DNA of 14,600 nt. Origin: a virus. The stretch lies in UHGV virus genome UHGV-0201016. One strand, given 5' to 3'. The position numbers and the translations under genes were made by a program. The notes under the pieces are model-generated. The model was not told where the DNA came from. It did not search any database and was given only the letters and a program-made list of their open reading frames with translations. Positions 1 to 14,600 of the stretch are shown here, one piece after another; position 1 is the first letter of the stretch; every line of letters begins with the position of its first letter.

Positions 1-946
1 ACGGTAGTTTGTCTGCCGCAGTGGCAAGGCCTGCCAGTGCGGTCAGTGTGGCGTCGGCAGGTTGTTTTCCATTGGCAAGGTCATATACAGCCTTCACGGC
101 TTTTGGTGTGGCAGCCTGCGTTTCTGACGTGCTGTTAGTGGCGCTGCTGAGCTGGACAAGGCCTTTTCGCGCTGTGGTCGCGTCCTGTGCGGTATATTTC
201 CCGTTAGCAAGGTCATATGCTGTCTTTACCGCCTTTGGCGTTGCCGCAAGCGTTTCAGAATCGCTGTTGGTGGCGCTACTGAGCTGGACAAGACCTTTTC
301 GCGCTGTGGTCGCGTCCTGTGCAGTATATTTCCCGTTAGCAAGGTCATACGCGACCTTTACCGCTCTCGGCGTTGCGGCCAGTGTTTCAGACGTGCTGTT
401 GGTTGCGCTGCTTAACTGAGTAAAACCTTTTGCGGTCAGCGATGCATCCGGGTGTCGTCGTGACTGTTCGTGTTCTGAGATTTTGTCATCCACATATTTA
501 CGGGTCGCCAGTACCACCGACGGGTCGATTTTCAGCGTGATGGCTTCGGTATTCGAGACAACCAGAATCATGCGGATAGTCTGGGTACGACCACTGCCTT
601 CCTGCAACTGCGGTTTGTACGTTTCCGGGCAGTTCGCCACCGCAATGAGTACGCCTTCATCATCATAAAGCCCAATCTCACGGATCCAGAATCCTCCCTC
701 GTTTTCAGGGATGATTTGCTCCGCAATAATCTGGCTCTGATTGTTAGGGTCAACACTCAGAAGATTCAGCGGTGCAATGCGTTTCTGGTTAATCAGTTTT
801 GTCTGTGCCGGGTCTGGTGTCGGTAATACACCATTCGCATCACCAACGGCCATTTGCGTCAGATTCAGCTTACTGCCGAGCATCGTCGCGTTAGCCAGTC
901 GTGCTGCGCCCTGATTAGTCAGAATGGCGTAGTATTTCACTGTCAT
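1..946 (-). CDS. H: Phage tail fibre protein, N-terminal 315 codons (P2 gpH-like); 3' end lies beyond the window start
   Basis: ATG at 946-944 overlaps the TGA stop of the upstream gene (ATGA). Hand translation of the minus strand is open for all 315 codons down to position 1 (MTVKYYAILTNQGAARLANATMLGSKLNLTQMAVGDANGVLPTPDPAQTKL...EHEQSRRHPDASLTAKGFTQLSSATNSTSETLAATP...). It is absent from the ORF track because there is no in-window stop. Confidence 0.85.
   Translation of the reverse strand, partial: MTVKYYAILTNQGAARLANATMLGSKLNLTQMAVGDANGVLPTPDPAQTKLINQKRIAPLNLLSVDPNNQSQIIAEQIIPENEGGFWIREIGLYDDEGVLIAVANCPETYKPQLQEGSGRTQTIRMILVVSNTEAITLKIDPSVVLATRKYVDDKISEHEQSRRHPDASLTAKGFTQLSSATNSTSETLAATPRAVKVAYDLANGKYTAQDATTARKGLVQLSSATNSDSETLAATPKAVKTAYDLANGKYTAQDATTARKGLVQLSSATNSTSETQAATPKAVKAVYDLANGKQPADATLTALAGLATAADKLP
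60..425 (-). repeat. About three tandem copies of a 132-bp (44-codon) in-frame repeat inside the tail fibre gene
   Basis: Copies at about 66-197, 198-329 and 330-425 are near-identical on direct comparison. On the minus strand they encode repeats of LSSATNS(T/D)SETLAATP(K/R)AVKxAYDLANGKYTAQDATTARKGLVQ; on the plus strand they produce the spurious repetitive ORF 9-419. Confidence 0.8.
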
Positions 947-1554
947 GCGTTTACTCTCAGGTTATCAATTAAATGAATGACCGAGGCCGGGAAATAATCC
1001 CCTCCGACAATAATGGCCTCCGGGGTGTAGGGATAAACCGTCAGGGCGTCACCGTGATAGCATCCCGTTCCGGCAAAAATGTTGCCGGTTGTACTTAAAC
1101 TGATAGCCAGTCCCGTCAGATGGCGGCTCGCCGGTTTTGCATCAGCAACGAGACGTTCCAGCTCCAGATACATTTCTTCGGTAATACCCTGCTCAAGCAC
1201 GCCAACAACGATACGGAACGTCCCCGGCTCCTCGTTGAGCTGCCACCACTCCCTCACTTCAATCAGATAGCCGAGCGGCTCCACAACACGCCGGATTGCG
1301 CCGACAGTACCCTTATGACAGTGGATGAAATAGGCATCGCGGATAACGGCGCGTTTTGTCGCTTCCGGCCACTTTTCATCCCACCTGTCGACCGAAAACG
1401 CCCACGCCAGCCACGGCAGCAGATTTGCCGGACAGGTGTCCGGGTTCCACAGTTCACGAATACTGACCGGCGTTTTTTCAATTTCCGCACAGGCTTTTGC
1501 GGCGGCGACTTCAAGCGGTGATGAGCCGGTCGGCAGCAGTCGCGAATCACTCAT
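943..1554 (-). CDS. I: Phage tail/baseplate protein, P2 gpI-like (203 aa)
   Basis: Complete ORF; GGAGG lies 6 nt upstream of the ATG at 1554; stop overlaps the tail-fibre start; position immediately upstream of H as in P2. Family assignment is from recalled similarity. Confidence 0.75.
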   Translation of the reverse strand: MSDSRLLPTGSSPLEVAAAKACAEIEKTPVSIRELWNPDTCPANLLPWLAWAFSVDRWDEKWPEATKRAVIRDAYFIHCHKGTVGAIRRVVEPLGYLIEVREWWQLNEEPGTFRIVVGVLEQGITEEMYLELERLVADAKPASRHLTGLAISLSTTGNIFAGTGCYHGDALTVYPYTPEAIIVGGDYFPASVIHLIDNLRVNA

Positions 1555-1674
1555 CCGAGCCTCCGGTCACGACGTGGTATTCGGTACAGAAAGACGCCTG
1601 CGTACTGTTGAGCACGATACCCGTTCTGGTCGGGTGAACTGTTCAACCGGGGACGCGCCAGCGCCGCCGAACGT

Positions 1675-2514
1675 GTGGAAATCGACGTCAGTCATAACGC
1701 CCTTGCCGGTGGTCTTCTCTGTGCGGACGGCCAGTGGCGGCAGATTGTCACCATTGAGGACGCCCTGAAAGGCGGCTGCACACTGTTCGACATTGAGCAG
1801 CTCAAACGTGAAAACAGCGCCGACGATTTTAAAAACCTGTTCATGTGTGAATTTGTTGACGACAAGGCGTCGGTGTTCCCGTTCGAGGAGCTGCAACGCT
1901 GCATGGTCGACACGCTGGAAGAATGGGAAGACTATGCGCCGTTTGCCGCGAATCCGTTCGGCTCCCGCCCGGTATGGATTGGTTACGACCCGTCACACCG
2001 TGGCGACAGTGCCGGATGCGTGGTGCTGGCACCGCCGGTGGTGGCCGGTGGCAAATTCAGAATACTTGAGCGTCACCAGTGGAAAGGCATGGACTTTGCC
2101 ACCCAGGCGGAATCCATCCGCAAACTCACCGAAAAATATAACGTTGAATACATCGGTATTGATGCCACCGGCCTCGGTGTCGGCGTGTTCCAGCTCGTGC
2201 GCTCGTTCTATCCCGCCGCGCGCGACATCCGCTACACGCCGGAAATGAAAACCGCAATGGTGCTCAAGGCAAAAGACGTTATCCGCCGTGGCTGTCTGGA
2301 ATATGACGTCAGCGCCACCGACATCACCAGCTCGTTTATGGCTATCCGCAAGACCATGACCAGCAGCGGACGCAGCGCCACCTATGAGGCCAGCCGCAGC
2401 GAGGAAGCCAGCCACGCCGACCTCGCCTGGGCGACCATGCACGCCCTGTTAAATGAGCCACTCACCGCCGGTATCAGCACCCCGCTGACATCCACCATTC
2501 TGGAGTTTTACTGA
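1675..2514 (+). pseudogene. P: Terminase large (ATPase/nuclease) subunit, P2 gpP-like, 3' fragment only; 5' part deleted
   Basis: The frame opens only after the stop at 1609-1611 and the first start codon is GTG at 1675, giving at most ~300 codons against a recalled ~590 for gpP. The fragment contains a nuclease-like region (PVWIGYDPSHRGDSAGCVV). Its stop overlaps the portal start (TGATG, 2512-2516). The upstream space is occupied by gpI on the other strand. Confidence 0.7.
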
Positions 2515-3548
2515 TGAGCAAGAAAAAAGGGAAAACACCGCAACCTGCGGCAAAAACAATGACCGCCAGCGCCCCGAAAATGGAGGCATTCACCTTTGGT
2601 GAGCCGGTGCCGGTACTCGACCGCCGTGACATTCTGGATTACGTCGAGTGCATCAGTAACGGCAGATGGTATGAGCCGCCGGTCAGCTTTACCGGTCTGG
2701 CAAAAAGCCTGCGTGCTGCCGTGCATCACAGCTCACCGATTTACGTTAAACGTAATATTCTGGCTTCAACGTTTATCCCGCACCCGTTGCTTTCCCAGCA
2801 GGATTTCAGCCGCTTTGTGCTGGATTTTCTGGTGTTCGGTAATGCGTTTCTGGAAAAGCGCTACAGCACCACCGGTAAGGTCATCAGACTGGAAACCTCA
2901 CCGGCAAAATATACCCGTCGTGGCGTGGAAGAGGATGTTTACTGGTGGGTGCCGTCCTTCAACGAGCCGGCAGCCTTCGCGCCCGGCTCCGTGTTTCACC
3001 TGCTGGAGCCCGATATTAATCAGGAGCTGTACGGCCTGCCGGAATATCTCAGCGCCCTTAACTCTGCCTGGCTGAATGAATCGGCCACGCTGTTCCGCCG
3101 CAAGTATTACGAAAACGGCGCACATGCCGGATACATCATGTACGTCACCGATGCCGTGCAGGATCGCAACGATATCGAAATGCTTCGCGAAAACATGGTT
3201 AAGTCGAAAGGCCGCAACAACTTTAAAAACCTGTTTCTCTATGCCCCGCAGGGGAAAGCCGACGGCATTAAAATTATCCCGCTCAGTGAAGTGGCAACGA
3301 AGGACGATTTTTTTAATATCAAAAAAGCCAGCGCCGCTGACCTGCTGGACGCGCACCGCATCCCCTTTCAGTTGATGGGAGGCAAGCCGGAGAACGTCGG
3401 GTCGCTGGGTGATATTGAGAAAGTGGCAAAGGTCTTTGTCCGCAATGAGCTTATCCCGCTACAGGACAGGATCCGCGAGATAAACGGCTGGCTCGGTCAG
3501 GAGGTCATCCGCTTTAAAAACTACTCACTGGACACTGACAACGGCTGA
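2514..3548 (+). CDS. Q: Phage portal (capsid vertex) protein, P2 gpQ-like (344 aa)
   Basis: Complete ORF translationally coupled to the terminase fragment; basic Lys-rich N-terminus; length and position (last gene before cos, about 170 bp from the cohesive-end sequence) match P2 Q. Confidence 0.85.
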   Translation: MSKKKGKTPQPAAKTMTASAPKMEAFTFGEPVPVLDRRDILDYVECISNGRWYEPPVSFTGLAKSLRAAVHHSSPIYVKRNILASTFIPHPLLSQQDFSRFVLDFLVFGNAFLEKRYSTTGKVIRLETSPAKYTRRGVEEDVYWWVPSFNEPAAFAPGSVFHLLEPDINQELYGLPEYLSALNSAWLNESATLFRRKYYENGAHAGYIMYVTDAVQDRNDIEMLRENMVKSKGRNNFKNLFLYAPQGKADGIKIIPLSEVATKDDFFNIKKASAADLLDAHRIPFQLMGGKPENVGSLGDIEKVAKVFVRNELIPLQDRIREINGWLGQEVIRFKNYSLDTDNG

Positions 3549-3553
3549 ACATC

Positions 3554-3575
3554 GCCGCCTGCGGGCGGCTTTTTT
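3554..3575 (+). terminator. Rho-independent terminator downstream of the portal gene
   Basis: GCCGCC (3554-3559), loop TGCG, GGCGGC (3564-3569), followed by TTTTTT (3570-3575). Confidence 0.55.
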
Positions 3576-3717
3576 ACGCCCCCGTCATCACGCCCTCACA
3601 CGCTCATCACCGCACAAAAAATCCCGCAGACACACCAACGCCCAGCAGGCCAAGTAAACGCCTTCACGACGCGCTCAGACGCTGAAAAAATAAAATCAGC
3701 ACCACCGCCAGCGCGCA

Positions 3718-3736
3718 GTGCTTTCCCCGCCTCGCC
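3718..3736. other. cos cohesive-end sequence, P2 type (19 nt)
   Basis: gtgctttccccgcctcgcc is the reverse complement of GGCGAGGCGGGGAAAGCAC, the 19-nt P2 cohesive end as I recall it. It lies between the portal gene and the cargo operon, as in P2 (Q - cos - old). Confidence 0.7.
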
Positions 3737-3865
3737 CGCCCGCTTCATGGGTCGATTTTAATGCAGTTGCATTTTTATCGAAAGTCTCGTCTCACAAAAC
3801 CCTCCCTTCACTAAATAGACTCATTATCCACATGCAATCTAATTCAAAAAAATGCATGTATAGTA

Positions 3866-5836
3866 TTAAAGGTCATCAATTAAACCTAAAGGCAAACCGT
3901 CCTCACCAACCGAGCTATAATGAGCGATAATATTCGAAAGTTCACCAGTAGAAAACGAATTAGGCAAATCATTATCAACTAATATAATCTGGCACGGAAC
4001 ATTTTTTCTTTCTGCTTTTTGAACTGTATTCAATAGTTGTTCATAAATATTTTGATACTTCATCGGATCTGACATTCCCTCAAGGTCATCCTCGACTGCA
4101 AGAGTTTCTTTTGAATATTTTTCCTTGGTCTGTTTCCCTAAATATTTGCCAACCGTATCAAATATCAAAAGTAAAGGATGGTTAACATTATGATCTATTG
4201 CATAATCAAGAATAGACAAAAGATACCCAATAGAAGAAATAGTTCTCAAACCTCCGGATGTTATTTTAAAATATTCTTTTTCTCTTATAACAGGAATGTA
4301 ATAGCTTTCAGAGATTTTTATCCCCGTTCTGTTTTTGATATTAATACCCTTCAAATACTGACTAAATCTATCACCCAAACCTTGTAAAATGCCCTCCATG
4401 CTAGGTGCGTTTTTCTTTAACGCCTCCAAGCGTTCAGTTAATGCTTCAATATCTTTTCTCAGTACCTGATACTTTTCAAGCAGTTCCTCTTGCTGGTTTC
4501 TAACCTTCAAATCTTTTACTAACTGCTCCCTAACCTTCTCATTTTTTGATATCTCTTTAATATAAAAATCTCTCTGAGTCAAGAATGGTGTAATCATTGA
4601 CTGGCTTTCTTCGTCAATCAATTCTCTCAACTCGTGAAGTCGTTCATCTAATTCTTTTTTATAACCTGATTCTTTTTTTAATTTAAATGACATTTCTGAG
4701 ATCATGTCATTAATATTTCGTCTACGTCGACTAAGTGAATTCAACTCTTCATTAAGATCTTTTTCTGATGAAATTTCAAATGGAAAATCAGAATCATCTA
4801 TTTTAATGTGGCTATCACAGATTGGACAGGAAAATACTTCCTTATCCAATACACCAATGCGAGAATTTGCTGTTTTAATCGCTTTGAGTTTTTCAATATC
4901 ATTATCATAGTCATTTTTTAACCGCGAATATTTATCAATCTTATCCTCAAGCGCACTAATATTTAATATGCACTCTTTGTATTTAAGCGAAATAAAATTG
5001 TGAGCATCTTTAAATTCTGTATACTGTATGGAATCCGCTTTCATATTTTTATCGAGAGCAGACAAACCTGCAACAAGTTCTTCTAAAACAAGATCTATCC
5101 TATTAATCTCATCATCAATTGATTCAATTGTTTCATAGTCTGTATCGCGAAGAAATTCAGATATTATCTGATACTTCCTATTTAATTCCGTTACTAAACT
5201 ACTTTTTGCAGATATTTCACCTTGGAGTCTGGCGATGCTTTCATCCAACACATTGAACATGTATTTAAAAACTTCTTTCGTAAATGCGTAGCGGGACCAA
5301 TCACCCAATCGCAAGAAAGATTTACTACCAATATCATCCTGACTTACATAAACAAATTTATATATATTTCTAAAACTTAACCTGCGCATCTGTGAATGCG
5401 CTTTAGAAGGAGACACCTTAATTTCAATCTTTGGGAAATTAAGACTATCAAGTAAAAACTCCGAAAAAACACCATCAACATTTGATAATGGGCTATAATT
5501 AGGAGCGTATTTTTTCGGAAAATGTTTATGTAAATCATCAAACTTACAACGATAAACTTCTATTGCTTTTTTATGATCATAGATATCTCTTACGATTGTG
5601 AATACAGTATCATTGATCACTACTTCAAGAGCAGCATAGTTTACTGATGTTTTTATTTCATCTGCTAAATCTATAGAGCTAGCACCTAAAAGATAATTAA
5701 TAAACTCCAGAATGCTTGACTTACCTGTGTCAGAGTCTCCGTAGATAACATTGAGACCTTTATAAAAAGTAGTGACGTAGTTTTTACGAACACCAACAAG
5801 AATCAAACTATTGATATTGAGATATGATTTCATCAT
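3866..5836 (-). CDS. SMC/Rad50/RecN-like ABC ATPase with long central coiled coil and a CxxC motif (LmuB-like position)
   Basis: 656-aa ORF. Walker A GDSDTGKS (aa 33-40, nt 5717-5740); about 300 aa of heptad-like charged sequence; CPIC at aa 337-340 (nt 4817-4828) near the middle of that region; ABC-signature-like ITSGGLRT (about aa 523-530); Walker-B-like HPLLLIFDT (Asp560 followed by Thr, not Glu). N-terminus resembles RecN/RecF/SMC heads. Confidence 0.75.
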   Translation of the reverse strand: MMKSYLNINSLILVGVRKNYVTTFYKGLNVIYGDSDTGKSSILEFINYLLGASSIDLADEIKTSVNYAALEVVINDTVFTIVRDIYDHKKAIEVYRCKFDDLHKHFPKKYAPNYSPLSNVDGVFSEFLLDSLNFPKIEIKVSPSKAHSQMRRLSFRNIYKFVYVSQDDIGSKSFLRLGDWSRYAFTKEVFKYMFNVLDESIARLQGEISAKSSLVTELNRKYQIISEFLRDTDYETIESIDDEINRIDLVLEELVAGLSALDKNMKADSIQYTEFKDAHNFISLKYKECILNISALEDKIDKYSRLKNDYDNDIEKLKAIKTANSRIGVLDKEVFSCPICDSHIKIDDSDFPFEISSEKDLNEELNSLSRRRRNINDMISEMSFKLKKESGYKKELDERLHELRELIDEESQSMITPFLTQRDFYIKEISKNEKVREQLVKDLKVRNQQEELLEKYQVLRKDIEALTERLEALKKNAPSMEGILQGLGDRFSQYLKGINIKNRTGIKISESYYIPVIREKEYFKITSGGLRTISSIGYLLSILDYAIDHNVNHPLLLIFDTVGKYLGKQTKEKYSKETLAVEDDLEGMSDPMKYQNIYEQLLNTVQKAERKNVPCQIILVDNDLPNSFSTGELSNIIAHYSSVGEDGLPLGLIDDL

Positions 5837-6345
5837 TTCTCCTTGAAAACTTGATTTATAACAGAGTTTAACTTAGAGGTAGGCAATGCTTGTAGCGGTA
5901 ACAATGCTTCGGATAGTCGTTTTATTTCTTTAAAATATCCATCAGTCAATGAGCTAGCAAATTCCTTACCTTTTTCAGATAAAAATAATTTAACACTCTC
6001 ATTATTTTTTTTCTCAGCTGAGAGCAATCCCCGCAATGACATAATTTTTATAAGATATTTCACTTTGGAATTGTCGAATAAGATATCTACATTTGATGAA
6101 AAACTCTTTATTGTATAAGTTAACTGGGACTCGACACAAGCAGGCTTTTTCCCCGAAATTGTAAGAGCATAATCAATTTTTGATGGGTTTTTTATCAGAT
6201 ACATAAAAATTTGTATTTTATTAATATCTAATGATAACACTCCTTTTTTGCTATGAGATAATATAGATATAGCAATGGCAAGCATAGCAAAATTCAAGCT
6301 ATACTCTTCATCAAGAGGAATATACGGCAAGTTATTTTTCTTCAT
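5833..6345 (-). CDS. Small protein of unknown function (170 aa), middle gene of the three-gene operon (LmuC-like position)
   Basis: Complete ORF. Its start overlaps the stop of the hydrolase gene by 14 nt, and its TGA overlaps the ATG of the ATPase gene (ATGA at 5833-5836). No recognisable motif. Confidence 0.55.
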   Translation of the reverse strand: MKKNNLPYIPLDEEYSLNFAMLAIAISILSHSKKGVLSLDINKIQIFMYLIKNPSKIDYALTISGKKPACVESQLTYTIKSFSSNVDILFDNSKVKYLIKIMSLRGLLSAEKKNNESVKLFLSEKGKEFASSLTDGYFKEIKRLSEALLPLQALPTSKLNSVINQVFKEK

Positions 6346-7555
6346 GATTACCTCGCCGTAATTGCTCCAAAGTTTCTACGCTGGTTTCAGATGACCAGAC
6401 AATATCTCTATCATTTTTGTTAGCCAGTTGATGCAACATTCCTTTCTTATGTATCGTTTCTAAACTTTTTATAAGAGAATCTAACGACGACTTATCCTCT
6501 TGGGCTATTCGTCTATGAACAGCAGCAATAAATTTATCTGGGGAAATTGAATTCGCGATATATTGCTCATACTCTTCCTGGTAAATCTCCCTTATTTTAG
6601 AATACAAATGACCAAGTAGTTTCCTATCGTAATCACTCGTAAAAATATTTCTCGCAAGCTCAGCATTATAATAATATTCCTTTGCATGCATAGCGATATC
6701 CTGATGTATATCTGCGACAATCATTTTTAAGACGAAATACTCATTATCATATTGTTTCTCATCAGAAAAACGCTCAACACATATCTTCTTGGGTGCTTCT
6801 AAATTTATCTGCTGAATAAATTGCTTTACCGCAACAAACACTGTAGACGAGCTGTTTTCGGGCTTGCAAATTGAGCTATGCCCTTCATTAACTGCAATTG
6901 AGTTATTTCGTTCACTATCCATCGGTAATGCGCTTTTTTTATCAACTATAGTGTCATGAGAACCATAAACATATCTAGTGATAGGAAGTTTTTTGCTACA
7001 ATTTATCCAGCGCCTATTCAATGTATCAGTCGCTTCACTTAACAATCCAAGATCTACTAACTGAGCATTTGAAGATACCATTGAAGTTATATTCGCCAAT
7101 TTAGCACCAAAGTGAGGGACTGCTAACGAAATGAATCCAATTATATTAGATTGTTCCTCATGCTCAACTTTTTTTAGAATTAGATTTTTTGATATTAACC
7201 CCCCCATACTATGGGCAATTATTATAATTCGAGAGTAATCACTTAACGTTACCCTAATCTCAGTATACAATAACTCAGCTATTTCATCAGTTGGTAAATT
7301 TCTCTCTAACTTATTTTTCTTAGAGAAAATACGAGCCAATAATCCTGACGTTTTAGCATACGTTTGTGTAAATTTGGTGAAATAGTTGAAACATGCAATA
7401 TCAAATACATTGCCAATGTCTTCATCTTCTGCTAATAGTTTTGGAAATGAAGTTTCTTTATTAAAGTTCCATGTTTCCAAACCACCATTTAATCCATGTA
7501 CAAATAGTATCAGGCTATCTTTTTTCTCGTGGCTTATCCATTCAACCATGCTCAT
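6332..7555 (-). CDS. Alpha/beta-hydrolase (lipase/esterase-type) fusion protein with a C-terminal all-helical domain of unknown function; candidate effector of the defence operon (LmuA-like position)
   Basis: 407-aa ORF. LILFVHGLNGG (HG oxyanion region); nucleophile elbow IIIIAHSMGGL with the Ser codon at 7208-7210; candidate acid GSHDTIVD; candidate His NEGHSSICK. Residues ~250-407 are charged and helical with no catalytic motif I recognise. AT-rich codon usage. Its last 14 nt overlap the next gene. Confidence 0.7.
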   Translation of the reverse strand: MSMVEWISHEKKDSLILFVHGLNGGLETWNFNKETSFPKLLAEDEDIGNVFDIACFNYFTKFTQTYAKTSGLLARIFSKKNKLERNLPTDEIAELLYTEIRVTLSDYSRIIIIAHSMGGLISKNLILKKVEHEEQSNIIGFISLAVPHFGAKLANITSMVSSNAQLVDLGLLSEATDTLNRRWINCSKKLPITRYVYGSHDTIVDKKSALPMDSERNNSIAVNEGHSSICKPENSSSTVFVAVKQFIQQINLEAPKKICVERFSDEKQYDNEYFVLKMIVADIHQDIAMHAKEYYYNAELARNIFTSDYDRKLLGHLYSKIREIYQEEYEQYIANSISPDKFIAAVHRRIAQEDKSSLDSLIKSLETIHKKGMLHQLANKNDRDIVWSSETSVETLEQLRRGNHEEK

Positions 7556-7603
7556 ATGCTTTTCTGCCGTGTATAAAAATTAAACCATAACAAACAATTC
7601 CTC

Positions 7604-7620
7604 AACAATAACATATTGTT
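7604..7620. promoter_or_regulatory. Inverted repeat AACAATA-N3-TATTGTT in the AT-rich intergenic region upstream of the cargo operon
   Basis: Perfect 7-bp arms with a 3-bp spacer, 50-65 bp upstream of the operon start (7555) and just downstream of the A stop; all-AT stem, so more likely a protein-binding site than a terminator. Confidence 0.3.
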
Positions 7621-7644
7621 ACCCCGTTTGACCGTTCTTTTCAA

Positions 7645-9927
7645 CTACCACTCACGCTGTCTGTCAAAAAAGTCGATATCGTTATCAAATTTAAAACGCT
7701 TATGCCCAAAATCCAAAACAGCTCCGCGAGCGAGAGCTTCAAGCTCCCAATAACTAGCCTGAATGTCACTTTGTGCAAGAAGAACCTTAATTTTCGGGAT
7801 AGTCTTTCTCTCCTGTCTTGTCAACCGGGCGGATGGGGCAGGAAAGTAGCTTCGACCATTGAAAGGGGTAAAGCTCTGCTGTGAACGATTACTGCATTTC
7901 AGTTCATTACTCAATAAGTCTCTAAGTACCTTCATAATGCCTGGCTCGGTCCAACTTAGAATCCCTTCATCTATTAAATTTAACACCGCTGCAGCATGCT
8001 CAGTCGGTGTGGGTGCCGGTAACGAAGTATCACCACCGTTGAGCTTTCCACAGTTATTGACAGGACTCCGAGGCGCGGCGATGCCGCTTTTTAAAGTCAA
8101 AGGCTCAACGACCGGAACTTTCGGCACAATGCGCCAGTCCGTCGTTCTGGTGATATGAATATGACGCGCGCCGAGATGCGGCGCGTAAATGCCGACCACT
8201 CTCTCGACTTCTTCCTCGTACTCGTTAACTTCATCCGACGGGCTACGGGCGACTCTGACAGTCTGACAATCGCGCGGAACATTTGCCCCACCCTGCGCGC
8301 TGATATACAACGCAAAATCACCACTGTCTGCGGCGGCGCGTGCAGCCTCGACGCGCTCGTCAAACTCATCAGCAATGCTGACGCCGCGCGGCAATTTGCG
8401 TAGTTCACGGTAAGCCCCCATTGTCGGCAGGCCAACCGTTTTAAATTGCGGGATGCGCCACGTTGACGCCCATGCGGTAACAGCCGCTGCAGTGTCTTTC
8501 AGCGGCCTGCCGGTGTCGTTATCGAGCTGACCATCCAGTGCATAGCCGTCGATGTTTTTTGAAATGTATTTCGCGATATATCCCGCAGCACCGCCCCGGT
8601 TAAGGTGTTTTGCCTGAAAACGGTTTCGCGCGGCTCCTCTTTCGTCGCCATCCTCTTTGAGCGCATAGCGACGCATGATTTCGATAATCTGGTTACGCTG
8701 GCGTGAATTACAAAAAAGCATCATATGCCAGTGCGGCGTTCCGTCGTGGTGTGGCTCGACGACACGCAAACCGTAGACCTGTAAATCATTATCCTTGAAT
8801 GCCGTGCGCATCAGGCTCCAGATACGGCAGAGATAACGCTGCGCATCCTTTGGATTAAATGCCTCATCGTTCCAGCCGTGATTAAGCTGCACGGTTTTAC
8901 TTTCGCCTTTTCCTACCTGACGTGTCGGGTGATACTTTGACGGCGCGGTCAGCGTGATAAACATCCCCACATCACCCTCTGCAGCGGCGTAACGCTCAAT
9001 ACCGGCAATGGTGTTCATCAGCTCCATCCGGCGAATTTCAGGATTAGAAATACTGCCCATCACCTTACTGATAAGGTCGATGCGCTCGCCGGTTTCCCTG
9101 TTTTCAAGGTCACACGATTTAAGAAATTCCAGATTTGCCTGGCGGCGCGCACGCACATCACGAATGGCGTGTTTACTGGCATAAGGAGAACGGTCTTTAT
9201 TGACCTCCCCGACAGCTATTAGTAACGCTTCATGCCAGCGCATACGCTGGCCTTTAAGCTGATGAGTCCACCACTCATCGTTAAACAGACGGGCAATGGC
9301 AGAATATGCCTGCCTCGTGGTCATCTGCCCTTTACGGTATTTTTTCCAGTAGAGCGGGGAAATATTGAAAGCACGTGCAGCGCCAGCAACATGACCATAG
9401 AGGTGAGCCTGCGCCTCATCCGTAAACAGCGATTCTTTTTCGCCATGCGCATCCACCCAGGCATCGCTGAGTTCCTCATACATCATGAAAAGCTGCGATG
9501 AGATACGGGCAGCAAACTTTTTCAGCTCCTTGTCATTCATTCCCGGCAGGCGCGCATAGTGGTCACGCTCTGCCAGAAACAGTAACGACGCGTCGGTGTT
9601 CATTTCATGGCGCTGATTCACACGCTCAATGCGCGGCCATAAACGACGCTGAAAAGTGGATGTGAGGAAATAAAACCCGTGCACCGGGCTTTTATTGCGC
9701 CGGATGTAGTCATAGCGTGAAGTAAACAGCGAGCGCAAAAAGTAAGGCAGGCGGTTAATCGTGGATAAAACACCTTGCACCTGATGCATCTCGTCACGTG
9801 TAAGGGGTCTTTCGCGCCCGACGGCCTCGCGTGGCGCGTTCCATGCATAAGCACCGGTAAACGCCTTACCGGTGCCTGCAGCAAATGCTGACGGAGGGAC
9901 AAAACGCCCGGAGGCTTTAACGGCCAT
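7645..9927 (-). CDS. A: Replication initiation protein, P2 gpA-like HUH rolling-circle endonuclease (761 aa from ATG at 9927)
   Basis: HUH motif PHWHMMLF and tyrosine motif GYIAKYISK are visible. The track ORF begins at TTG 9969; the first ATG is at 9927, giving 761 aa, the recalled length of P2 A. Confidence 0.85.
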   Translation of the reverse strand: MAVKASGRFVPPSAFAAGTGKAFTGAYAWNAPREAVGRERPLTRDEMHQVQGVLSTINRLPYFLRSLFTSRYDYIRRNKSPVHGFYFLTSTFQRRLWPRIERVNQRHEMNTDASLLFLAERDHYARLPGMNDKELKKFAARISSQLFMMYEELSDAWVDAHGEKESLFTDEAQAHLYGHVAGAARAFNISPLYWKKYRKGQMTTRQAYSAIARLFNDEWWTHQLKGQRMRWHEALLIAVGEVNKDRSPYASKHAIRDVRARRQANLEFLKSCDLENRETGERIDLISKVMGSISNPEIRRMELMNTIAGIERYAAAEGDVGMFITLTAPSKYHPTRQVGKGESKTVQLNHGWNDEAFNPKDAQRYLCRIWSLMRTAFKDNDLQVYGLRVVEPHHDGTPHWHMMLFCNSRQRNQIIEIMRRYALKEDGDERGAARNRFQAKHLNRGGAAGYIAKYISKNIDGYALDGQLDNDTGRPLKDTAAAVTAWASTWRIPQFKTVGLPTMGAYRELRKLPRGVSIADEFDERVEAARAAADSGDFALYISAQGGANVPRDCQTVRVARSPSDEVNEYEEEVERVVGIYAPHLGARHIHITRTTDWRIVPKVPVVEPLTLKSGIAAPRSPVNNCGKLNGGDTSLPAPTPTEHAAAVLNLIDEGILSWTEPGIMKVLRDLLSNELKCSNRSQQSFTPFNGRSYFPAPSARLTRQERKTIPKIKVLLAQSDIQASYWELEALARGAVLDFGHKRFKFDNDIDFFDRQREW

Positions 9928-10192
9928 ATGAGCCAAAAGCCTCTGAACAACGCCTGCTGAGTTGCTCAACCTGCGCGTTTAAATCAGCAAAAGACTTTGC
10001 GCTTCCGGTCAGAATATCGTGATGCATCAGGCCGGAAACGAGCTGGCTTAATTTCGGATAATAACCAACCACCGCCAGCCATTCCTGACCGGCGTTTTTA
10101 CCGCTTTCCGCTCTCTTTTTCTCGTGGAGAATAAACTGAAAGCTGTCACTGGTAACGACATAACGTTCGCCAATTTCAATACGAATACTCAT
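9917..10192 (-). CDS. Hypothetical early protein (P2 orf83-like position)
   Basis: 91-aa ORF in the chain of start/stop-overlapping genes between B and A; no motif recognised. Confidence 0.55.
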   Translation of the reverse strand: MSIRIEIGERYVVTSDSFQFILHEKKRAESGKNAGQEWLAVVGYYPKLSQLVSGLMHHDILTGSAKSFADLNAQVEQLSRRCSEAFGSYGR

Positions 10193-10413
10193 GCCGTTCT
10201 CCGGTAATGTTTGTTTTTTGCTTCAAAGACTGACTGGCAGGAAACACAACGCGTGGCTGACGGATAAGCCGCACGACGGGCAGCAGGTATTGGCGCGTCA
10301 CACTCTTCGCAAACCAGCGCAGAAGCACCGCAATGTTTTACCCTTGCCGCGTTAATCTGACGCTCCAGTAATTCAGCCTGTTGTTCCTGAATAAAATCTA
10401 CGTTGTCCGGCAT
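10189..10413 (-). CDS. TraR/DksA-family C4 zinc-finger protein (P2 orf82-like position)
   Basis: 74 aa with CEEC-x17-CVSC (Cys-x2-Cys-x17-Cys-x2-Cys) and a preceding helical segment, as in F-plasmid TraR. Confidence 0.75.
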   Translation of the reverse strand: MPDNVDFIQEQQAELLERQINAARVKHCGASALVCEECDAPIPAARRAAYPSATRCVSCQSVFEAKNKHYRRTA

Positions 10414-10718
10414 TACCAGCTCCTTTTGTCGTTAAGTTTTTTAAATTCATCAGCGCAATAGCTAGCAATTTCTGTCGTTAATTTCGTCAGTTCATCCACG
10501 GAGGAGATTTGCTTGTGAAATACAGCGCGTTTAACAAGTAAATTGACCACATCAGACAGGAGATTTAATTCGTTCTGATAAATCGCGATAACAGACTCAG
10601 TTATTTCGCGTTTTTCTTTATCAAGACCAAGTTGAATAAGAGATAAATCGCCATTTTTCATAACAGCGATTTTTAAGGCGTTATTCAGTAATACAACTGG
10701 ATGAGAACAGGACATCAA
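10413..10718 (-). CDS. Hypothetical early protein (P2 orf81-like position)
   Basis: 101-aa ORF; stop overlaps the next start; no motif recognised. Confidence 0.55.
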
Positions 10719-10939
10719 AGCACCTCCCCGCGAGATAATCCGATATTGTGAAATTTTTCCGACTCCTGACTGAGCAGCTCGACTATCTCCACGCGGGATA
10801 ACTCCGCCTTTGTGATGTGGCGAATCATGGCGTCAAGATGAGAAGAAAAGCGCGTCGCTGCGTCGGCCTGTGCTTCGGTTCTGGCCTGTTGCAGCAGTAA
10901 TGCGTATTTACCGCACTGATTTTCAGAAACTGTATGCAT
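10715..10939 (-). CDS. Hypothetical early protein (P2 orf80-like position)
   Basis: 74-aa ORF with ATG at 10939 and 4-nt overlap with the downstream gene. Confidence 0.55.
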
Positions 10940-11002
10940 GACTTTCTCCAGGCAAAAAGAAGCCCCGCACGATTAAGTGCGTTAAAAACTCTGGTTAATT
11001 AC

Positions 11003-11503
11003 TTAATGCAGATATTGCTCTGGTTTTACCGACGTCAGAATTGTCGGTGCATACTCAAACAGACTGAATAATTCACGTAACGCACGGAATAAAGCATCAC
11101 GCCAGTAACATGACTCTTCATTAATTCGCCAGTATGGCTGGTTGAATTCTTTTTCAGTCAATCCGGCATGCATAAATAAAGTACGGCGCTGACTGACAGT
11201 TAAAAAGCTAATATATGCATACTCACTTGCACCGACCTGACGGCGTTTTGAGAATGCCCCACGCAGTTCATCAATTGCACAAACCAGCCGTTCACGTTCG
11301 ACGTCGTTCATTTCTTCAAAACGCATCGTTGCGTGACGCTGTTTTAACTGCGCATGGAAGCAAACCGTTAGCCGTTCACGTTCCATCATCTGATTATAAT
11401 AATCGCATGTATCCTGCCAGCGAGGGACGGCCAGATGCTTACCAATTATCCGGCGCATAGCTGCTGGCTGTTTTTCAACAAGATTGAGCGTCATCACTGT
11501 CAT
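11003..11503 (-). CDS. B: Replication protein, P2 gpB-like (166 aa)
   Basis: Complete 166-aa ORF in the position and with the length of P2 B, between the orf78-like ORF and the small ORF cluster. Confidence 0.7.
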   Translation of the reverse strand: MTVMTLNLVEKQPAAMRRIIGKHLAVPRWQDTCDYYNQMMERERLTVCFHAQLKQRHATMRFEEMNDVERERLVCAIDELRGAFSKRRQVGASEYAYISFLTVSQRRTLFMHAGLTEKEFNQPYWRINEESCYWRDALFRALRELFSLFEYAPTILTSVKPEQYLH

Positions 11504-11736
11504 TTCCAGACCCTCCGGCTTTTCAGAAAGGTCAGAGCCTTATTTAACGGACTCTGTTTTTTGGTGCGGATAATGATTCCCTTACGCCCCTTACCGTGGG
11601 TAATGGTGAAGTCAATCGCCCTTGGGCTTTCGTTACGCAATAACTGAGCAATACAACGAGGCTCGTTCATCCTTTCCACCTTAAGCCGCACGGCCATGTC
11701 TTGATTTGCTGTAACTAATGCGATTTTTCCAGTCAT
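11500..11736 (-). CDS. Hypothetical protein (P2 orf78-like), start uncertain
   Basis: The track ORF starts at 11760; the internal Met at 11736 gives 78 aa and less overlap with the upstream gene; 4-nt overlap with the B start. Confidence 0.45.
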   Translation of the reverse strand: MTGKIALVTANQDMAVRLKVERMNEPRCIAQLLRNESPRAIDFTITHGKGRKGIIIRTKKQSPLNKALTFLKSRRVWK

Positions 11737-12037
11737 GCCATTCTGTCGGAGCTTCATCAACTAGCTGGGCTGCGTACTTGTCCCACTCACGGCGATTAAT
11801 CCATAACTCAGCATGACCGCCCGGCTTTAATGGGTCCGTCATATAAAAGGCTGGTAACTTGCCTGCTTTCGCCATTTCAGCAACAGCGCGAGGCGTCTTA
11901 CCGATGTAAAGAGCAAAACCCTCTTTCGAGAGCAAATCCGACGGTGCGGCTGCAAGTTTGATGTCACATTTTTTACTTTTTGTGAGATCAGATACTTTTT
12001 CTCCAACATCGTTATTCATTTCTGATCCAATACTCAT
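11681..12037 (-). CDS. cox: Cox-like excisionase / early-promoter regulator (HTH), start uncertain
   Basis: HTH-like segment FALYIGKTPRAVAEMAKAGKLPAFYMTDP resembles the P2 Cox / 186 Apl family. The track start is TTG at 12067; ATG at 12037 has GAGG 8 nt upstream. Confidence 0.6.
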   Translation of the reverse strand: MSIGSEMNNDVGEKVSDLTKSKKCDIKLAAAPSDLLSKEGFALYIGKTPRAVAEMAKAGKLPAFYMTDPLKPGGHAELWINRREWDKYAAQLVDEAPTEWHDWKNRISYSKSRHGRAA

Positions 12038-12141
12038 TTTGATATCCTCAACTTTGGTGCCATTCAACCAGAGCTATTTGAAGCCGCTCTGCGTTGTTCT
12101 GGTGTGTCGCATACAACATAAATTACGAGATACGACAATTC
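12038..12141. promoter_or_regulatory. Immunity switch region between divergent cox-like and C-repressor genes (expected site of early and repressor promoters and operators)
   Basis: 104-bp intergenic region between divergent regulators. Only weak sigma70-like hexamers (for example TTGTTC-N17-CATAAA toward C) could be picked out by eye; no element is resolved. Confidence 0.35.
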
Positions 12142-12453
12142 ATGTCAAATACACAAATCACATCTCAAGCAGAGAAACTCGCACTTATTCGGGAATCAGA
12201 AAGAATGACAAGGAAGCAAGTTGCTGAATTAACTGGAATTAACTACAACACCTATGCTGGATATGAGCAGGGAAAAGTAAAGATGTCTTTTGACGCAGGT
12301 ATGAAATTTTTCAAGCCAGAAAGATTTCGCAAGTACCGTGACTGGTTCATGTTTGATGAAACTGATCCCGCTGGCGGACAAATAGCCCCGGCGCTCGCGC
12401 ACATTGGGCAAGACTCAACAACCTTGCACCACTCAGACCAAAAGACTGGCTGA
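12142..12453 (+). CDS. C: Immunity repressor, P2 C-type (Xre-like HTH), 103 aa
   Basis: HTH segment RKQVAELTGINYNTYAGYEQGK. The track start at 12094 is TTG; the first ATG (12142) gives about 100 aa, as for P2 C. It lies upstream of and co-oriented with int, as in P2. Confidence 0.75.
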   Translation: MSNTQITSQAEKLALIRESERMTRKQVAELTGINYNTYAGYEQGKVKMSFDAGMKFFKPERFRKYRDWFMFDETDPAGGQIAPALAHIGQDSTTLHHSDQKTG

Positions 12454-12546
12454 CGATTTATTCAGCATATGTGTGCAGTAAATGTACGAAAGAAAATTGC
12501 ATTAATTTTCAAGTAGTAGAAGTAAACAGCGTCATCGGAGGGCTTT

Positions 12547-13542
12547 ATGTCTATTAAAAAGCTCGATGATGGTCGTTATGAAGTGGACGTCAGACCGCAG
12601 GGTGCAGATGGAAAACGTATCAGGCGGAAATTTAAAACTAAAGGTGAAGCTCAAGCATTCGAACGTCATGTGCTGGTTAACTACCACAACAAAGAGTGGC
12701 TGGAGAAGCCAGCCGACCGCCGAACTCTTACAGAGTTGTTAGGCAGATGGTGGATATATCACGGAAAATCACATGAGCGTGGAAATATTGAACGGGGGCG
12801 TTTGACGACAATAATCGCCAAATTTGCAGAAATGGGAGTGTCCAGAGCTGACCAGTTAACAAAGAAAACGATAACTGATTATCGAGTTGTAATGATGAAC
12901 GATGGTCTAAAACCAGCCAGCGTAAATCGGCATCTGGCAATAATGAGCGGGATGTTCACCAAGTTAATTGACGCCGGTGAATACCACTCTCACAACCCGT
13001 TCCGTGAGGTTAAGCGGTTACGTGAAGCTGTTACAGAAATGGCTTTTTTGTCCAGTGAAGAGATTACGCGGCTGTTATCCATGCTTGATGGTGATGAGTT
13101 AAATGCAACTCTGGTCTGCCTTTCTACTGGTGGACGCTGGAGTGAAGTGTCTAATTTGAAAGCTGAACACATCATTAACCAGATGGTTACGTTTATGAAA
13201 ACTAAAAACGGAAAGCGCAGGACAATTCCCGTTTCGCAGGACCTGATTAAAAGGATCAAGACCAAAAATTCAGGCAGGCTTTTTAATGCCAGTTACTACA
13301 AAGTGCGTAACGCTCTCAGGGAAGTAAAACCCGATTTACCTGACGGACAAGCAGTACATGTTTTGAGGCATACATTTGCCACACATTTTATAATGAATGG
13401 AGGTAACATAATCACATTGCAGCGCATCCTGGGTCATTCTAACATTCAGCAAACTATGACCTACGCACACTTTGCACCGGATTTCTTACAAGATGCTGTG
13501 ACTCTTAACCCGGTGTCAGGAATGTCCATAATGCGTCCATAA
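12547..13542 (+). CDS. int: Tyrosine integrase, P2 Int family (331 aa)
   Basis: GGAGGG lies 5 nt upstream of the ATG. Catalytic-box motifs HVLRHTFATHF and TMTYAHF are present; the N-terminus MSIKKLDDGRYEVDVRP is typical of P2/186 integrases. Confidence 0.9.
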   Translation: MSIKKLDDGRYEVDVRPQGADGKRIRRKFKTKGEAQAFERHVLVNYHNKEWLEKPADRRTLTELLGRWWIYHGKSHERGNIERGRLTTIIAKFAEMGVSRADQLTKKTITDYRVVMMNDGLKPASVNRHLAIMSGMFTKLIDAGEYHSHNPFREVKRLREAVTEMAFLSSEEITRLLSMLDGDELNATLVCLSTGGRWSEVSNLKAEHIINQMVTFMKTKNGKRRTIPVSQDLIKRIKTKNSGRLFNASYYKVRNALREVKPDLPDGQAVHVLRHTFATHFIMNGGNIITLQRILGHSNIQQTMTYAHFAPDFLQDAVTLNPVSGMSIMRP

Positions 13543-13630
13543 ACCAGAGTTAACTAGAGCCAATTGAAGCGATATGAGTAATTTAACTAATTGTAATACA
13601 ACAGAAAATACCGCTACGGCGGGGGCTACC
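13543..13630. other. attR junction region (phage/host boundary), core not resolved
   Basis: This 88-bp interval separates the int stop from the first codon with recognisable PflA homology. The P2 attP core is not present, so the element has a different site specificity. Confidence 0.35.
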
Positions 13631-14371
13631 AAGTCAGTTATTGGTCGCATTCACTCCTTTGAATCCTGTGGAACCGTAGACGGCCCAGGTATTCGCTTTA
13701 TCACCTTTTTCCAGGGCTGCCTGATGCGCTGCCTGTATTGTCATAACCGCGACACCTGGGACACGCATGGCGGTAAAGAAGTTACCGTTGAAGATTTGAT
13801 GAAGGAAGTGGTGACCTATCGCCACTTTATGAACGCTTCCGGCGGCGGCGTTACCGCATCCGGCGGTGAAGCAATCCTGCAAGCTGAGTTTGTTCGTGAC
13901 TGGTTCCGCGCCTGCAAAAAAGAAGGCATTCATACCTGTCTGGACACCAACGGTTTTGTTCGTCGTTACGATCCGGTGATTGATGAACTGCTGGAAGTAA
14001 CCGACCTGGTAATGCTCGATCTCAAACAGATGAACGACGAGATCCACCAAAATCTGGTTGGAGTTTCCAACCACCGCACGCTGGAGTTCGCTAAATATCT
14101 GGCGAACAAAAATGTGAAGGTGTGGATCCGCTACGTTGTTGTCCCAGGCTGGTCTGACGATGACGATTCAGCGCATCGCCTCGGTGAATTTACCCGTGAT
14201 ATGGGCAACGTTGAGAAAATCGAGCTTCTCCCCTACCACGAGCTGGGCAAACACAAATGGGTGGCAATGGGTGAAGAGTACAAACTCGACGGTGTTAAAC
14301 CACCGAAGAAAGAGACCATGGAACGCGTGAAAGGCATTCTTGAGCAGTACGGTCATAAGGTAATGTTCTAA
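13574..14371 (+). CDS. pflA: Pyruvate formate-lyase activating enzyme (glycyl-radical activase, radical SAM) with a 19-codon N-terminal extension; canonical start position is AAG
   Basis: CLMRCLYC radical-SAM cluster motif; residues 21-265 match E. coli PflA (246 aa, [14 protein letters not shown]...) as recalled. Codon 13631-13633 is AAG where ATG is expected, and the only in-frame start is ATG at 13574. Confidence 0.85.
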
Positions 14372-14383
14372 TTTCCCCGTAAA

Positions 14384-14413
14384 GCGGCAACTTTATTGAG
14401 TTGCCGCTTTTTT
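14384..14413 (+). terminator. Rho-independent terminator downstream of pflA
   Basis: GCGGCAAC (14384-14391), 8-nt loop, GTTGCCGC (14400-14407), then TTTTTT (14408-14413). Confidence 0.6.
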
Positions 14414-14452
14414 ATTCCGCGCTTCATTCTGCTACAGCGTTTTTAACACATC

Positions 14453-14600
14453 TTATAGTGCATCTACCATATCCCGTACCTGAGATAATAACGACTGATA
14501 ATAGCTCGCGTGAAGTTCTTCCCCATCGAATACCACTGTATTACACAAGAAAGTGACATCGGCATCTTCAATACCAAGATAACTGCACATATTTTTTAAA
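14453..14600 (-). CDS. 3' end (48 codons) of a host gene convergent with pflA; product not identified
   Basis: Minus-strand frame is open from the window end to the TAA at 14455-14453 (...NMCSYLGIEDADVTFLCNTVVFDGEELHASYYQSLLSQVRDMVDAL*); protein-like composition; start lies outside the window. Confidence 0.4.
   Translation of the reverse strand, partial: LKNMCSYLGIEDADVTFLCNTVVFDGEELHASYYQSLLSQVRDMVDAL

Follow-up and report, generated by a model that had tools for sequence, protein, structure and literature searches.

The stretch of DNA analyzed here (the window) comprises 14,600 nucleotides of the UHGV virus genome UHGV-0201016. Between gene A and the cos site and portal gene Q of a P2-like element, in place of tin/old, it carries a cassette of three genes in the operon order lmuA-lmuC-lmuB (Table 1). 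The initial annotation had described three translationally coupled minus-strand genes with 14-nt and 4-nt overlaps, and the ORF list gave exactly this arrangement, with lmuA and lmuC sharing positions 6332–6345 and lmuC and lmuB sharing 5833–5836 (ATGA). All three ORFs are intact and full-length. The cassette differs sharply in composition from its surroundings: its GC content, estimated by hand in the initial annotation at roughly 30% against roughly 50–58% in the flanks, was computed as 32.8% (0.328 for 3866–7555), against about 53–55% in the flanks (0.553 for the left flank, 1–3600; 0.534 for gene A, 7964–9969). The same shift was seen at third codon positions, where GC is 0.27–0.29 in the three lmu genes versus 0.55–0.66 in A and Q.

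Table 1. The lmu cassette and the features that bound it, in positions of the window
Feature	Position	Strand	Description
tQ terminator of gene Q	3554–3569		
Portal gene Q	2514–3548	+	Other boundary of the slot
Terminator-like hairpin followed by a T-run	3699–3714	-	Just past cos; pattern match only
cos, 19-nt P2 cohesive-end sequence	3718–3736	-	GGCGAGGCGGGGAAAGCAC, read on the minus strand; exact match to both NC_001895 ends
AT-rich 3' untranslated end of the cargo	3766–3865	-	GC 0.34; from the lmuB stop to the start of P2 homology
lmuB	3866–5836	-	656 aa; SMC/Rad50-like ABC ATPase, sensor (ORF list)
lmuC	5833–6345	-	170 aa; small middle component, MC4 type (ORF list)
lmuA	6332–7555	-	407 aa; effector (ORF list)
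Spacer with candidate operon promoter	7556–7644	-	89 nt, GC 0.33; between the gene A stop and the lmuA start
P2 replication gene A	7645–9927	-	Pfam Phage_GPA, 3.5e-123; upstream boundary of the slot

The boundaries of the cargo were defined by BLAST against P2. DNA homology to P2 ends at 3765 and picks up again at 7964, and the exact P2 cos sequence, present as its reverse complement, marks the edge of the slot. On the opposite side, BLAST together with protein comparison revealed that the last ~106 codons of A (7645–7963, GC 0.44) are a diverged allele, so that recombination at the hotspot had its boundary within the 3' part of A, the start codon of which was taken as in the RefSeq annotation of the TW14359 copy. 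The region between A and cos is the P2 defense hotspot as defined by Rousset et al. 2022. The lmu cassette is cargo gained by horizontal transfer into the cos-proximal A-Q hotspot of a P2-like E. coli prophage. The initial annotation had placed the genes exactly where P2 carries tin/old; the slot between A and cos is indeed the same, but the direction is opposite, as P2 tin/old are transcribed from cos towards A, whereas the lmu operon runs towards cos, co-directionally with A. The genes old/tin likewise occupy this slot next to cos as lysogenic-conversion exclusion genes, and Old is also an ABC-type ATPase; however, they have no homology to lmu, and Old is a single-polypeptide ATPase-nuclease rather than a three-component SMC-like system.

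A weak sigma-70-like match (TTGAAA-18-AACAAT, 7644–7615), which is a consensus match only, lies in the spacer upstream of lmuA, making this spacer a weak candidate for the operon's own promoter; in a promoter scan, promoter-like sites in the lmu region were not enriched over shuffles. Judged by its sequence pattern, the hairpin just past cos may terminate the lmuACB transcript. Neither an Rfam scan nor a tRNA scan found anything in the window.

The product of lmuA consists of an N-terminal effector domain fused to a helical ABC-3C C-terminal domain. It matched PADLOC profile PDLC03851 over nearly its full length (5.9e-109), and Pfam assigned residues 265–389 to CTD8 (PF20284; 1.5e-35, above the gathering cut-off) and the N-terminus, an alpha/beta-hydrolase of approximately residues 1–255, to DUF676 (2.1e-9) and also PGAP1, the kind of abhydrolase/lipase match that the initial annotation had anticipated for the 407-aa protein. 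Its reading of the protein as a Ser-Asp-His hydrolase with a helical C-terminal domain was likewise borne out, with Ser116 in an AHSMGG motif, Asp201, His226, and CTD8 all present. Across 32 homologs, the oxyanion residues H20-G21, the elbow A114-H-S116-M-G118, D201, and H226 are invariant. In the AF2 monomer model, the hydrolase core is confident (pLDDT 84–95) and the C-terminal domain is of low confidence. Foldseek matched the fold to monoacylglycerol lipases and thioesterases (E about 1e-8), and profile comparison with the PDB recovered the putative lipase 7x2p (2.8e-6), followed by weaker matches to LPLA2 and GPI inositol-deacylase. LmuA therefore combines the fold, small-x-Ser-x-Gly elbow, acid, His, and oxyanion HG of a lipase-type alpha/beta-hydrolase.

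The small protein encoded between effector and ATPase, giving the order A-C-B, matched PADLOC profile PDLC03869 over nearly its full length (4.1e-52) and Pfam MC4 (2.2e-26), which identifies it as the middle component LmuC.

The third protein, LmuB, gave the strongest match of the three (PADLOC PDLC03862, 5.1e-235, 780 bits, nearly full length). The initial annotation had described an SMC/Rad50-like ATPase with a coiled coil and a central CxxC, and the sequence and AF2 model both agree with it. The Walker A motif (G33xxxxGK39S40), the signature (T526-SGGLR-531), and the motif C337-P-I-C340 are present, and Walker B is deviant, ending D560-T561 (D-T rather than D-E). None of Walker A, the signature, the Walker B Asp, and CxxC varies among 24 homologs with identities down to 43%, and the hook reads C337-P-x-C340 in all of them. 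The model (pLDDT 86) has an ABC head and an antiparallel coiled coil of ~120 residues per arm (about residues 199–326 and 358–476), with the CxxC in the apex loop (327–357); by sequence and model, C337/C340 are a predicted zinc hook at the coiled-coil apex. The best Foldseek matches were the LmuB chains 9uxh_F, 9hqx_B, 9hqu_A, and 9nyg_B, which span three solved Lamassu systems and rank ahead of Rad50, SMC, and JetC; in the structural alignments, sequence identity to the V. cholerae and Salmonella enterica chains is only about 14–16%. A sequence profile of LmuB also matched 9hqu_A (E 1.7e-10), a chain from the Salmonella enterica Lamassu LmuACB complex. Single-sequence phmmer searches against PDB sequences gave no match for LmuA, LmuB, or LmuC, and the solved Lamassu structures were reached only by profiles and fold comparison. 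A tblastn search with LmuB against 50,697 phage records found nothing.

LmuB homologs are labeled 'exonuclease SbcC' or 'Rad50' in several sources, and LmuB itself has weak matches to Rad50 and, in Pfam, to SMC_N/AAA_23, the families that the initial annotation had suggested looking for. We therefore considered whether lmuB might be a housekeeping DNA-repair gene (SbcC-, RecN-, or RecF-like) with unrelated neighbors. This reading is effectively refuted by the profile scores: against the 780 bits of the Lamassu-specific HMM, the best NCBIfam score was 52.6 bits (cut-off 300), the Rad50 and SMC models scored 21–24 bits (cut-offs 700–1000), and the SbcC, RecN, and RecF models did not match. Membership in one of the last three families had been named in the initial annotation as grounds for abandoning its proposal, and no NCBIfam equivalog came near its cut-off. 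The genomic context argues in the same direction, as the ORF list contains no SbcD/Mre11 nuclease gene adjacent to lmuB, lmuB is translationally coupled to genes for ABC-3C CTD8 and MC4 proteins, the cassette is prophage cargo of foreign composition, and a second E. coli homolog retains the same two partner genes although its mobile setting is another. Rad50-Mre11/SbcCD, which have been proposed as the evolutionary source of Lamassu, share with LmuB the ABC head, antiparallel coiled coil, and CxxC zinc hook; LmuB differs from them in its much shorter coiled coil, the absence of an Mre11/SbcD partner, and the D-T rather than D-E ending of Walker B. A Gabija (GajA)/OLD-like reading was also tried and rejected, since the GajA matches (6e-4 and 7e-3) cover only residues 19–57, the Walker A region.

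In summary, each of the three proteins is covered over almost its entire length by a Lamassu-specific PADLOC profile, and CTD8 and MC4, both found by Pfam, are specific to ABC-3C systems. The locus is thus almost certainly a complete anti-phage system of the 'short' Lamassu (ABC-3C) type with a lipase effector, carried as P2-hotspot cargo. The effector/small protein/SMC-ATPase order from which the initial annotation had proposed a Lamassu/ABC-3C system is in agreement with the PADLOC, Pfam, and fold matches alike, and of its two alternatives, a catalogued subtype or a new variant, the former applies: the P2 hotspot has already been recorded as carrying this short Lamassu with its lipase/alpha-beta-hydrolase effector. 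Family, lipase subtype, hotspot, and the cassette itself are all on record, both in publications and in annotation pipelines (PADLOC, Pfam ABC-3C models, RefSeq names).

Short Lamassu systems whose effector is a lipase with CTD8 form a described class, of which an E. coli member has been validated (PMC12663957). Defense by this Ec-Lipase Lamassu against lambda-vir requires the LmuB Walker A Lys and the lipase catalytic His (Haudiquet et al., PNAS 2025, PMC12663957), and the system is toxic on overexpression (PMC12663957). It and the locus in the window are both short Lamassu systems of E. coli that combine a lipase effector with a CxxC zinc hook, a hook present in most short-Lamassu clades, the lipase clade included (PMC12663957). 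However, its residues are numbered K42/H215, versus K39/H226 here, and it is therefore probably a different homolog. A second E. coli lipase Lamassu that we recovered (P0032; K38, H225) does not fit the Ec-Lipase numbering either. The V. cholerae DdmABC/Vc-Cap4 (9NY5, 9NYG) and Salmonella enterica LmuACB (9HQU, 9HQX) systems have the same LmuB architecture and three-component logic. Their effectors cut DNA and are nucleases of the Cap4 type, that of the window is a Ser-Asp-His hydrolase, and the zinc hook is lost in Vc-Cap4, whereas LmuB of the window keeps its CxxC.

Of 5,426 complete E. coli genomes, 96 carry copies of about 99% identity, many of them O157:H7 and B strains. The copies in TW14359, B strains, and REL606 are 98–99.8% identical in DNA over the whole cargo and occupy the same A-cos slot. 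By contrast, the carrier prophage of the window differs from those of the other copies in its integration beside pflA, its int/C region, and a ~10-kb internal deletion that removed head, lysis, and baseplate genes. Among plasmids, a search for distant DNA matches returned one weak Klebsiella match only, in a 5.37-Mb record. The cassette appears in Table S5A of Rousset et al. 2022, in the P2 hotspot, as 'DUF676/PGAP1 + hypothetical + hypothetical', and the REL606 allele was cloned in the same study as pFR106, 'Hydrolase + SMC'. pFR106 (REL606) is absent from the systems reported there as protective. The REL606 lmuC gene is frameshifted by a TG insertion (2 bp), whereas lmuC of the window is intact; the negative result with this clone is therefore uninformative for the intact allele, and the broken lmuC may explain the absence of pFR106 from the protective systems.

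The state of the REL606 copy, which also adjoins a truncated portal pseudogene, the defective prophage around the window's operon, and the failure of the promoter scan to find a strong promoter could indicate that the operon is decaying and no longer functional, either about to be lost or kept silent within AT-rich DNA. We consider this very unlikely. The three lmu ORFs are full-length with every invariant residue present, and their proteins differ from those of O157:H7 TW14359 (WP_000063136, WP_000739990, and WP_001325828) by only 2, 2, and 5 residues. Substitutions are mostly synonymous: compared with the REL606 allele, the ratios of synonymous to non-synonymous codon changes are 24:9 for lmuA and 35:16 for lmuB, indicating purifying selection. 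The lmuC region is kept at 97.7–100% identity in 96 of the 96 complete genomes carrying the cassette, and REL606 has the sole frameshift among the matches listed (60 of the 96 genomes). This widespread E. coli cassette, found also in O157:H7 and laboratory B strains, is a complete Lamassu. As the only published near-identical clone came from a broken-lmuC allele, the allele of the window offers a ready-made intact version, usable for the study of killing by a non-nuclease (lipase) Lamassu effector.

A mechanism for this locus can be proposed by analogy with its homologs, in which one LmuA is held in check by two LmuB protomers and one LmuC that sequester its C-terminal domain, LmuB detects DNA ends or intermediates of phage replication, and freed LmuA oligomerizes and turns active, so that the infected cell dies (abortive infection) (PMC12663957; bioRxiv 10.1101/2025.03.14.643221). 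Vc-Cap4 and SalEnt are the only systems with an established LmuA1:LmuB2:LmuC1 stoichiometry. Homologs have also been shown to need LmuC, in addition to the ATPase and the catalytic site of the effector, for defense against phages or plasmids. By this analogy, LmuB2-LmuC would sequester LmuA until sensing and then release it, and K39, S116/D201/H226, and C337/C340 would have the same roles here as in the homologs. The freed hydrolase would then probably attack membrane lipids rather than DNA. Whether the intact-lmuC allele of the window is a fully active defense, with a lipase effector that would kill by membrane-lipid hydrolysis after release from LmuB2-LmuC, is in our estimate evenly balanced; if so, REL606 and the window would supply two naturally occurring alleles, one broken and one intact, with which to dissect the non-nuclease branch of Lamassu.

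The cassette might instead act mainly on plasmids or on rival P2/P4-type elements, in the manner of DdmABC-like elimination, rather than on lytic phages. V. cholerae Lamassu (DdmABC) restricts plasmids, LmuB homologs sense replication origins and DNA ends, and phage AC1 carries another cargo in the P2 hotspot, a TIR system, that keeps out related P2-like phages (Rousset 2022). We regard such a preference as rather improbable, as the validated E. coli lipase Lamassu protects against lambda-vir; it would in any case be another target range of the same system, not another identity, and the assignment to short Lamassu would stand. If the allele is active, a P2-type element, which replicates by A-mediated nicking and packages linear cos-ended DNA, would have to tolerate its own sensor for such DNA structures.

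The three overlapping minus-strand genes at 3866-7555 were each matched near end-to-end by a PADLOC model of a Lamassu component: the 407-aa protein by LmuA (PDLC03851, 5.9e-109), the 170-aa protein by LmuC (PDLC03869, 4.1e-52) and the 656-aa protein by LmuB (PDLC03862, 5.1e-235). Pfam searches placed a DUF676/PGAP1-type alpha/beta-hydrolase followed by the ABC-3C C-terminal domain CTD8 (1.5e-35) in the 407-aa protein, and the ABC-3C middle component MC4 (2.2e-26) in the 170-aa protein, both assignments exceeding the gathering cut-offs; the ATPase gave weak SMC_N/AAA_23 matches only. The initial annotation, which had proposed a Lamassu or ABC-3C-like arrangement of effector, small protein and SMC-ATPase and had suggested searching for abhydrolase or lipase and SMC_N/AAA_23 matches, was thus borne out, the last of these matches being present but weak. 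The ORF table reproduced its coordinates, strand and overlaps exactly (14 nt for lmuA/lmuC and 4 nt for lmuC/lmuB). Compared with the allele of E. coli B strain REL606, synonymous codon differences exceeded non-synonymous ones in both lmuA (24:9) and lmuB (35:16), an excess that apparently reflects purifying selection on the cassette. The Lamassu operon is real, complete and probably functional.

Coordinates of the Lamassu operon, its phage flanks and the compared E. coli loci
Feature	Sequence	Coordinates	Strand	Remark
Gene I	window	943-1554	-	
Terminase gene P, last 897 nt	window	1618-2514	+	
Portal gene Q	window	2514-3548	+	P2-like flank
P2 cos, 19-nt cohesive-end sequence	window	3718-3736	reverse complement	exact match
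lmuB ORF	window	3866-5836	-	656 aa
lmuC ORF	window	5833-6345	-	170 aa
lmuA ORF	window	6332-7555	-	407 aa
Replication gene A	window	7645-9927	-	P2-like flank
REL606 Lamassu locus	NC_012967.1	2112090-2117792		lmuC at locus 2584-3098
Second E. coli lipase-type Lamassu (L002)	GCA_026775745.1 contig DAKUIE010000056.1	4293-7966 (genes)		

An alignment of LmuB with 24 homologues, down to 43% identity, showed invariance of the Walker A motif (G33...G38-K39-S40), the C337-P-x-C340 motif, the signature motif T526-S-G-G-L-R531 and the Walker B aspartate D560. The residue following D560 is T, not E; a deviant Walker B has also been described for a published Salmonella Lamassu system. The AlphaFold2 model built on this alignment was confident (mean pLDDT 86), and comprised an ABC head and two arms, the ascending one long and helical (199-326) and the descending one a helix of 119 residues (358-476), with the CxxC in the apex loop between them (327-357). 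Its top PDB fold matches were LmuB chains of solved Lamassu complexes (9uxh_F, 9hqx_B, 9hqu_A and 9nyg_B, E 1e-16 to 1e-20), with Rad50, SMC and JetC ranking below them, and the LmuB sequence profile matched 9hqu_A at 1.7e-10. A housekeeping identity for the ATPase (SbcC, RecN or RecF), which the initial annotation had named as the outcome that would count against a defence role, was rejected: no NCBIfam equivalog for SbcC, RecN, RecF, SMC or Rad50 came near its cut-off, the best scoring 52.6 bits against 300. No SbcD-like gene was found among the neighbours of lmuB.

In LmuA, the oxyanion residues H20-G21, the nucleophile elbow H115-S116-M-G-G, D201 and H226 were all invariant among 32 homologues. 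AlphaFold2 modeled the hydrolase core confidently but not the C-terminal domain, which is unsurprising because this domain usually sits within a complex. Fold matches to the model were monoacylglycerol lipases, thioesterases and other serine hydrolases; profile matches included a putative lipase (2.8e-6) and an esterase (7e-5), with weak matches to lysosomal phospholipase A2 and GPI inositol-deacylase (E 0.05-0.07).

Homologous Lamassu systems form an LmuA1:LmuB2:LmuC1 complex, in which the C-terminal oligomerisation domain of the single LmuA is sequestered by LmuC and the coiled-coil-distal region of the LmuB dimer (PMC12663957; bioRxiv 10.1101/2025.03.14.643221). LmuB of these homologues binds DNA ends in vitro and, early in infection, is enriched in vivo at the lambda origin of replication; freed LmuA oligomerises into an active effector, leading to cell death. 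Lipase-type LmuA proteins were assigned by Li et al. to the CTD8 and CTD9 families and are predicted to form cyclic oligomers; LmuA of the window has CTD8. A validated E. coli short Lamassu with a Zn hook, Ec-Lipase, protects against lambda-vir in a manner dependent on the Walker A lysine and on the catalytic histidine of the lipase, and its overexpression is toxic unless that histidine is mutated (Haudiquet et al., PMC12663957). By analogy, K39 and C337/C340 of LmuB would play the same roles as their equivalents in the homologues, S116/D201/H226 of LmuA may act as the homologous catalytic residues do, and released LmuA would be predicted to target a membrane lipid. Residue numbers differ between Ec-Lipase (K42, H215) and the cassette in the window (K39, H226).

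The operon is compositionally foreign to the surrounding phage DNA. Its GC content is 0.328, versus 0.553 in window 1-3600 and 0.534 in gene A, in keeping with the AT-rich block noted at the outset, and third-codon-position GC is 0.27-0.29 in the cassette genes versus 0.55-0.66 in phage genes. DNA comparison with phage P2 showed homology stopping at 3765 and restarting at 7964; this gap, flanked by Q, cos and A, indicates that the cargo fills the P2 slot of orf91, tin and old, as had been supposed. Transcription of P2 tin and old is directed away from cos, whereas the Lamassu operon is co-directional with gene A, towards cos. The terminal ~106 codons of gene A (7645-7963; GC 0.44) are a diverged allele, with recognisable but clearly diverged protein-level homology to P2 A, and only from 7964 onwards does the DNA again match P2 and other sequenced P2-like phages. 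The recombination boundary of the hotspot therefore lies inside A, and the variable region reaches the 3' end of this gene.

The cassette is already known and catalogued. Of 5,426 complete E. coli genomes, 96 carry a near-identical copy (97.7-100% across the lmuC region), in every case on the chromosome; among them are many O157:H7 strains (TW14359, EC4115, SS17 and SS52) and E. coli B strains. The RefSeq designations of the genes are 'ABC-three component system protein / middle component 4 / AAA family ATPase'. The three proteins differ from the TW14359 copy by 2, 2 and 5 residues. The definition of A-Q as a defence hotspot comes from Rousset et al. (2022), whose Table S5A enters WP_000063136, the TW14359 LmuA that is 2 residues away from ours, as 'DUF676/PGAP1 + hypothetical + hypothetical'; Millman et al. 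(2022) noted that Lamassu-family members had previously been seen in those prophage hotspots. The wider family is broadly distributed across Gammaproteobacteria. A tblastn search of 50,697 deposited phage genomes with LmuB returned no homologue, and the isolated P2-like phages of that collection carry other cargo in the A-Q slot. LmuB of the window is borne in P2-like prophages by 96 E. coli chromosomes, versus none of the phage records.

The REL606 version was cloned by Rousset et al. (2022) as pFR106, 'Hydrolase + SMC', which is absent from the P2-hotspot systems they reported as protective. In REL606, a TG insertion after codon 50 splits lmuC into 50-aa and 121-aa fragments, which RefSeq annotates as such, and the adjoining portal gene is a truncated pseudogene. 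Since lmuC deletion abolishes defence in other Lamassu systems, the apparent negative result with pFR106 is uninformative. We found no defence test of the intact-lmuC allele of the window in the literature.

A second E. coli lipase-type Lamassu, L002, has LmuA 56% and LmuB 53% identical to those of the window and an MC4-type LmuC. It lies beside an ArdC-like gene and a gene that faintly matches type IV secretion coupling-protein families, which suggests a conjugative element rather than a P2 prophage, and this probable context implies that the lipase Lamassu module moves between kinds of mobile element.

The carrier prophage is defective. Window 1-1618, which holds gene I together with the beginning of tail-fibre gene H and the 3'-terminal piece of J, is fused at 1618/1619 to the 3' part of terminase gene P, with 1-2 nt of microhomology. 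The ~10-kb internal deletion corresponds to P2 coordinates of about 2118-12128, removing genes O through W along with the 5' half of P and the greater part of J, and its junction was absent from all 5,426 complete RefSeq E. coli genomes. The prophage is integrated beside host pflA (13574-14371), with an int-pflA arrangement common to 392 complete E. coli genomes. Its Cox/C/integrase region (11685-14600) shares only patches of 66-70% DNA identity with an O157:H7 prophage bearing the same cargo, indicating that this Lamassu cargo rides P2-like backbones with different integration modules. The N-terminal part of gene H contains a minus-strand tandem repeat (75-412) of 132 nt (44 aa), present in 2.6 copies with 83% matching.
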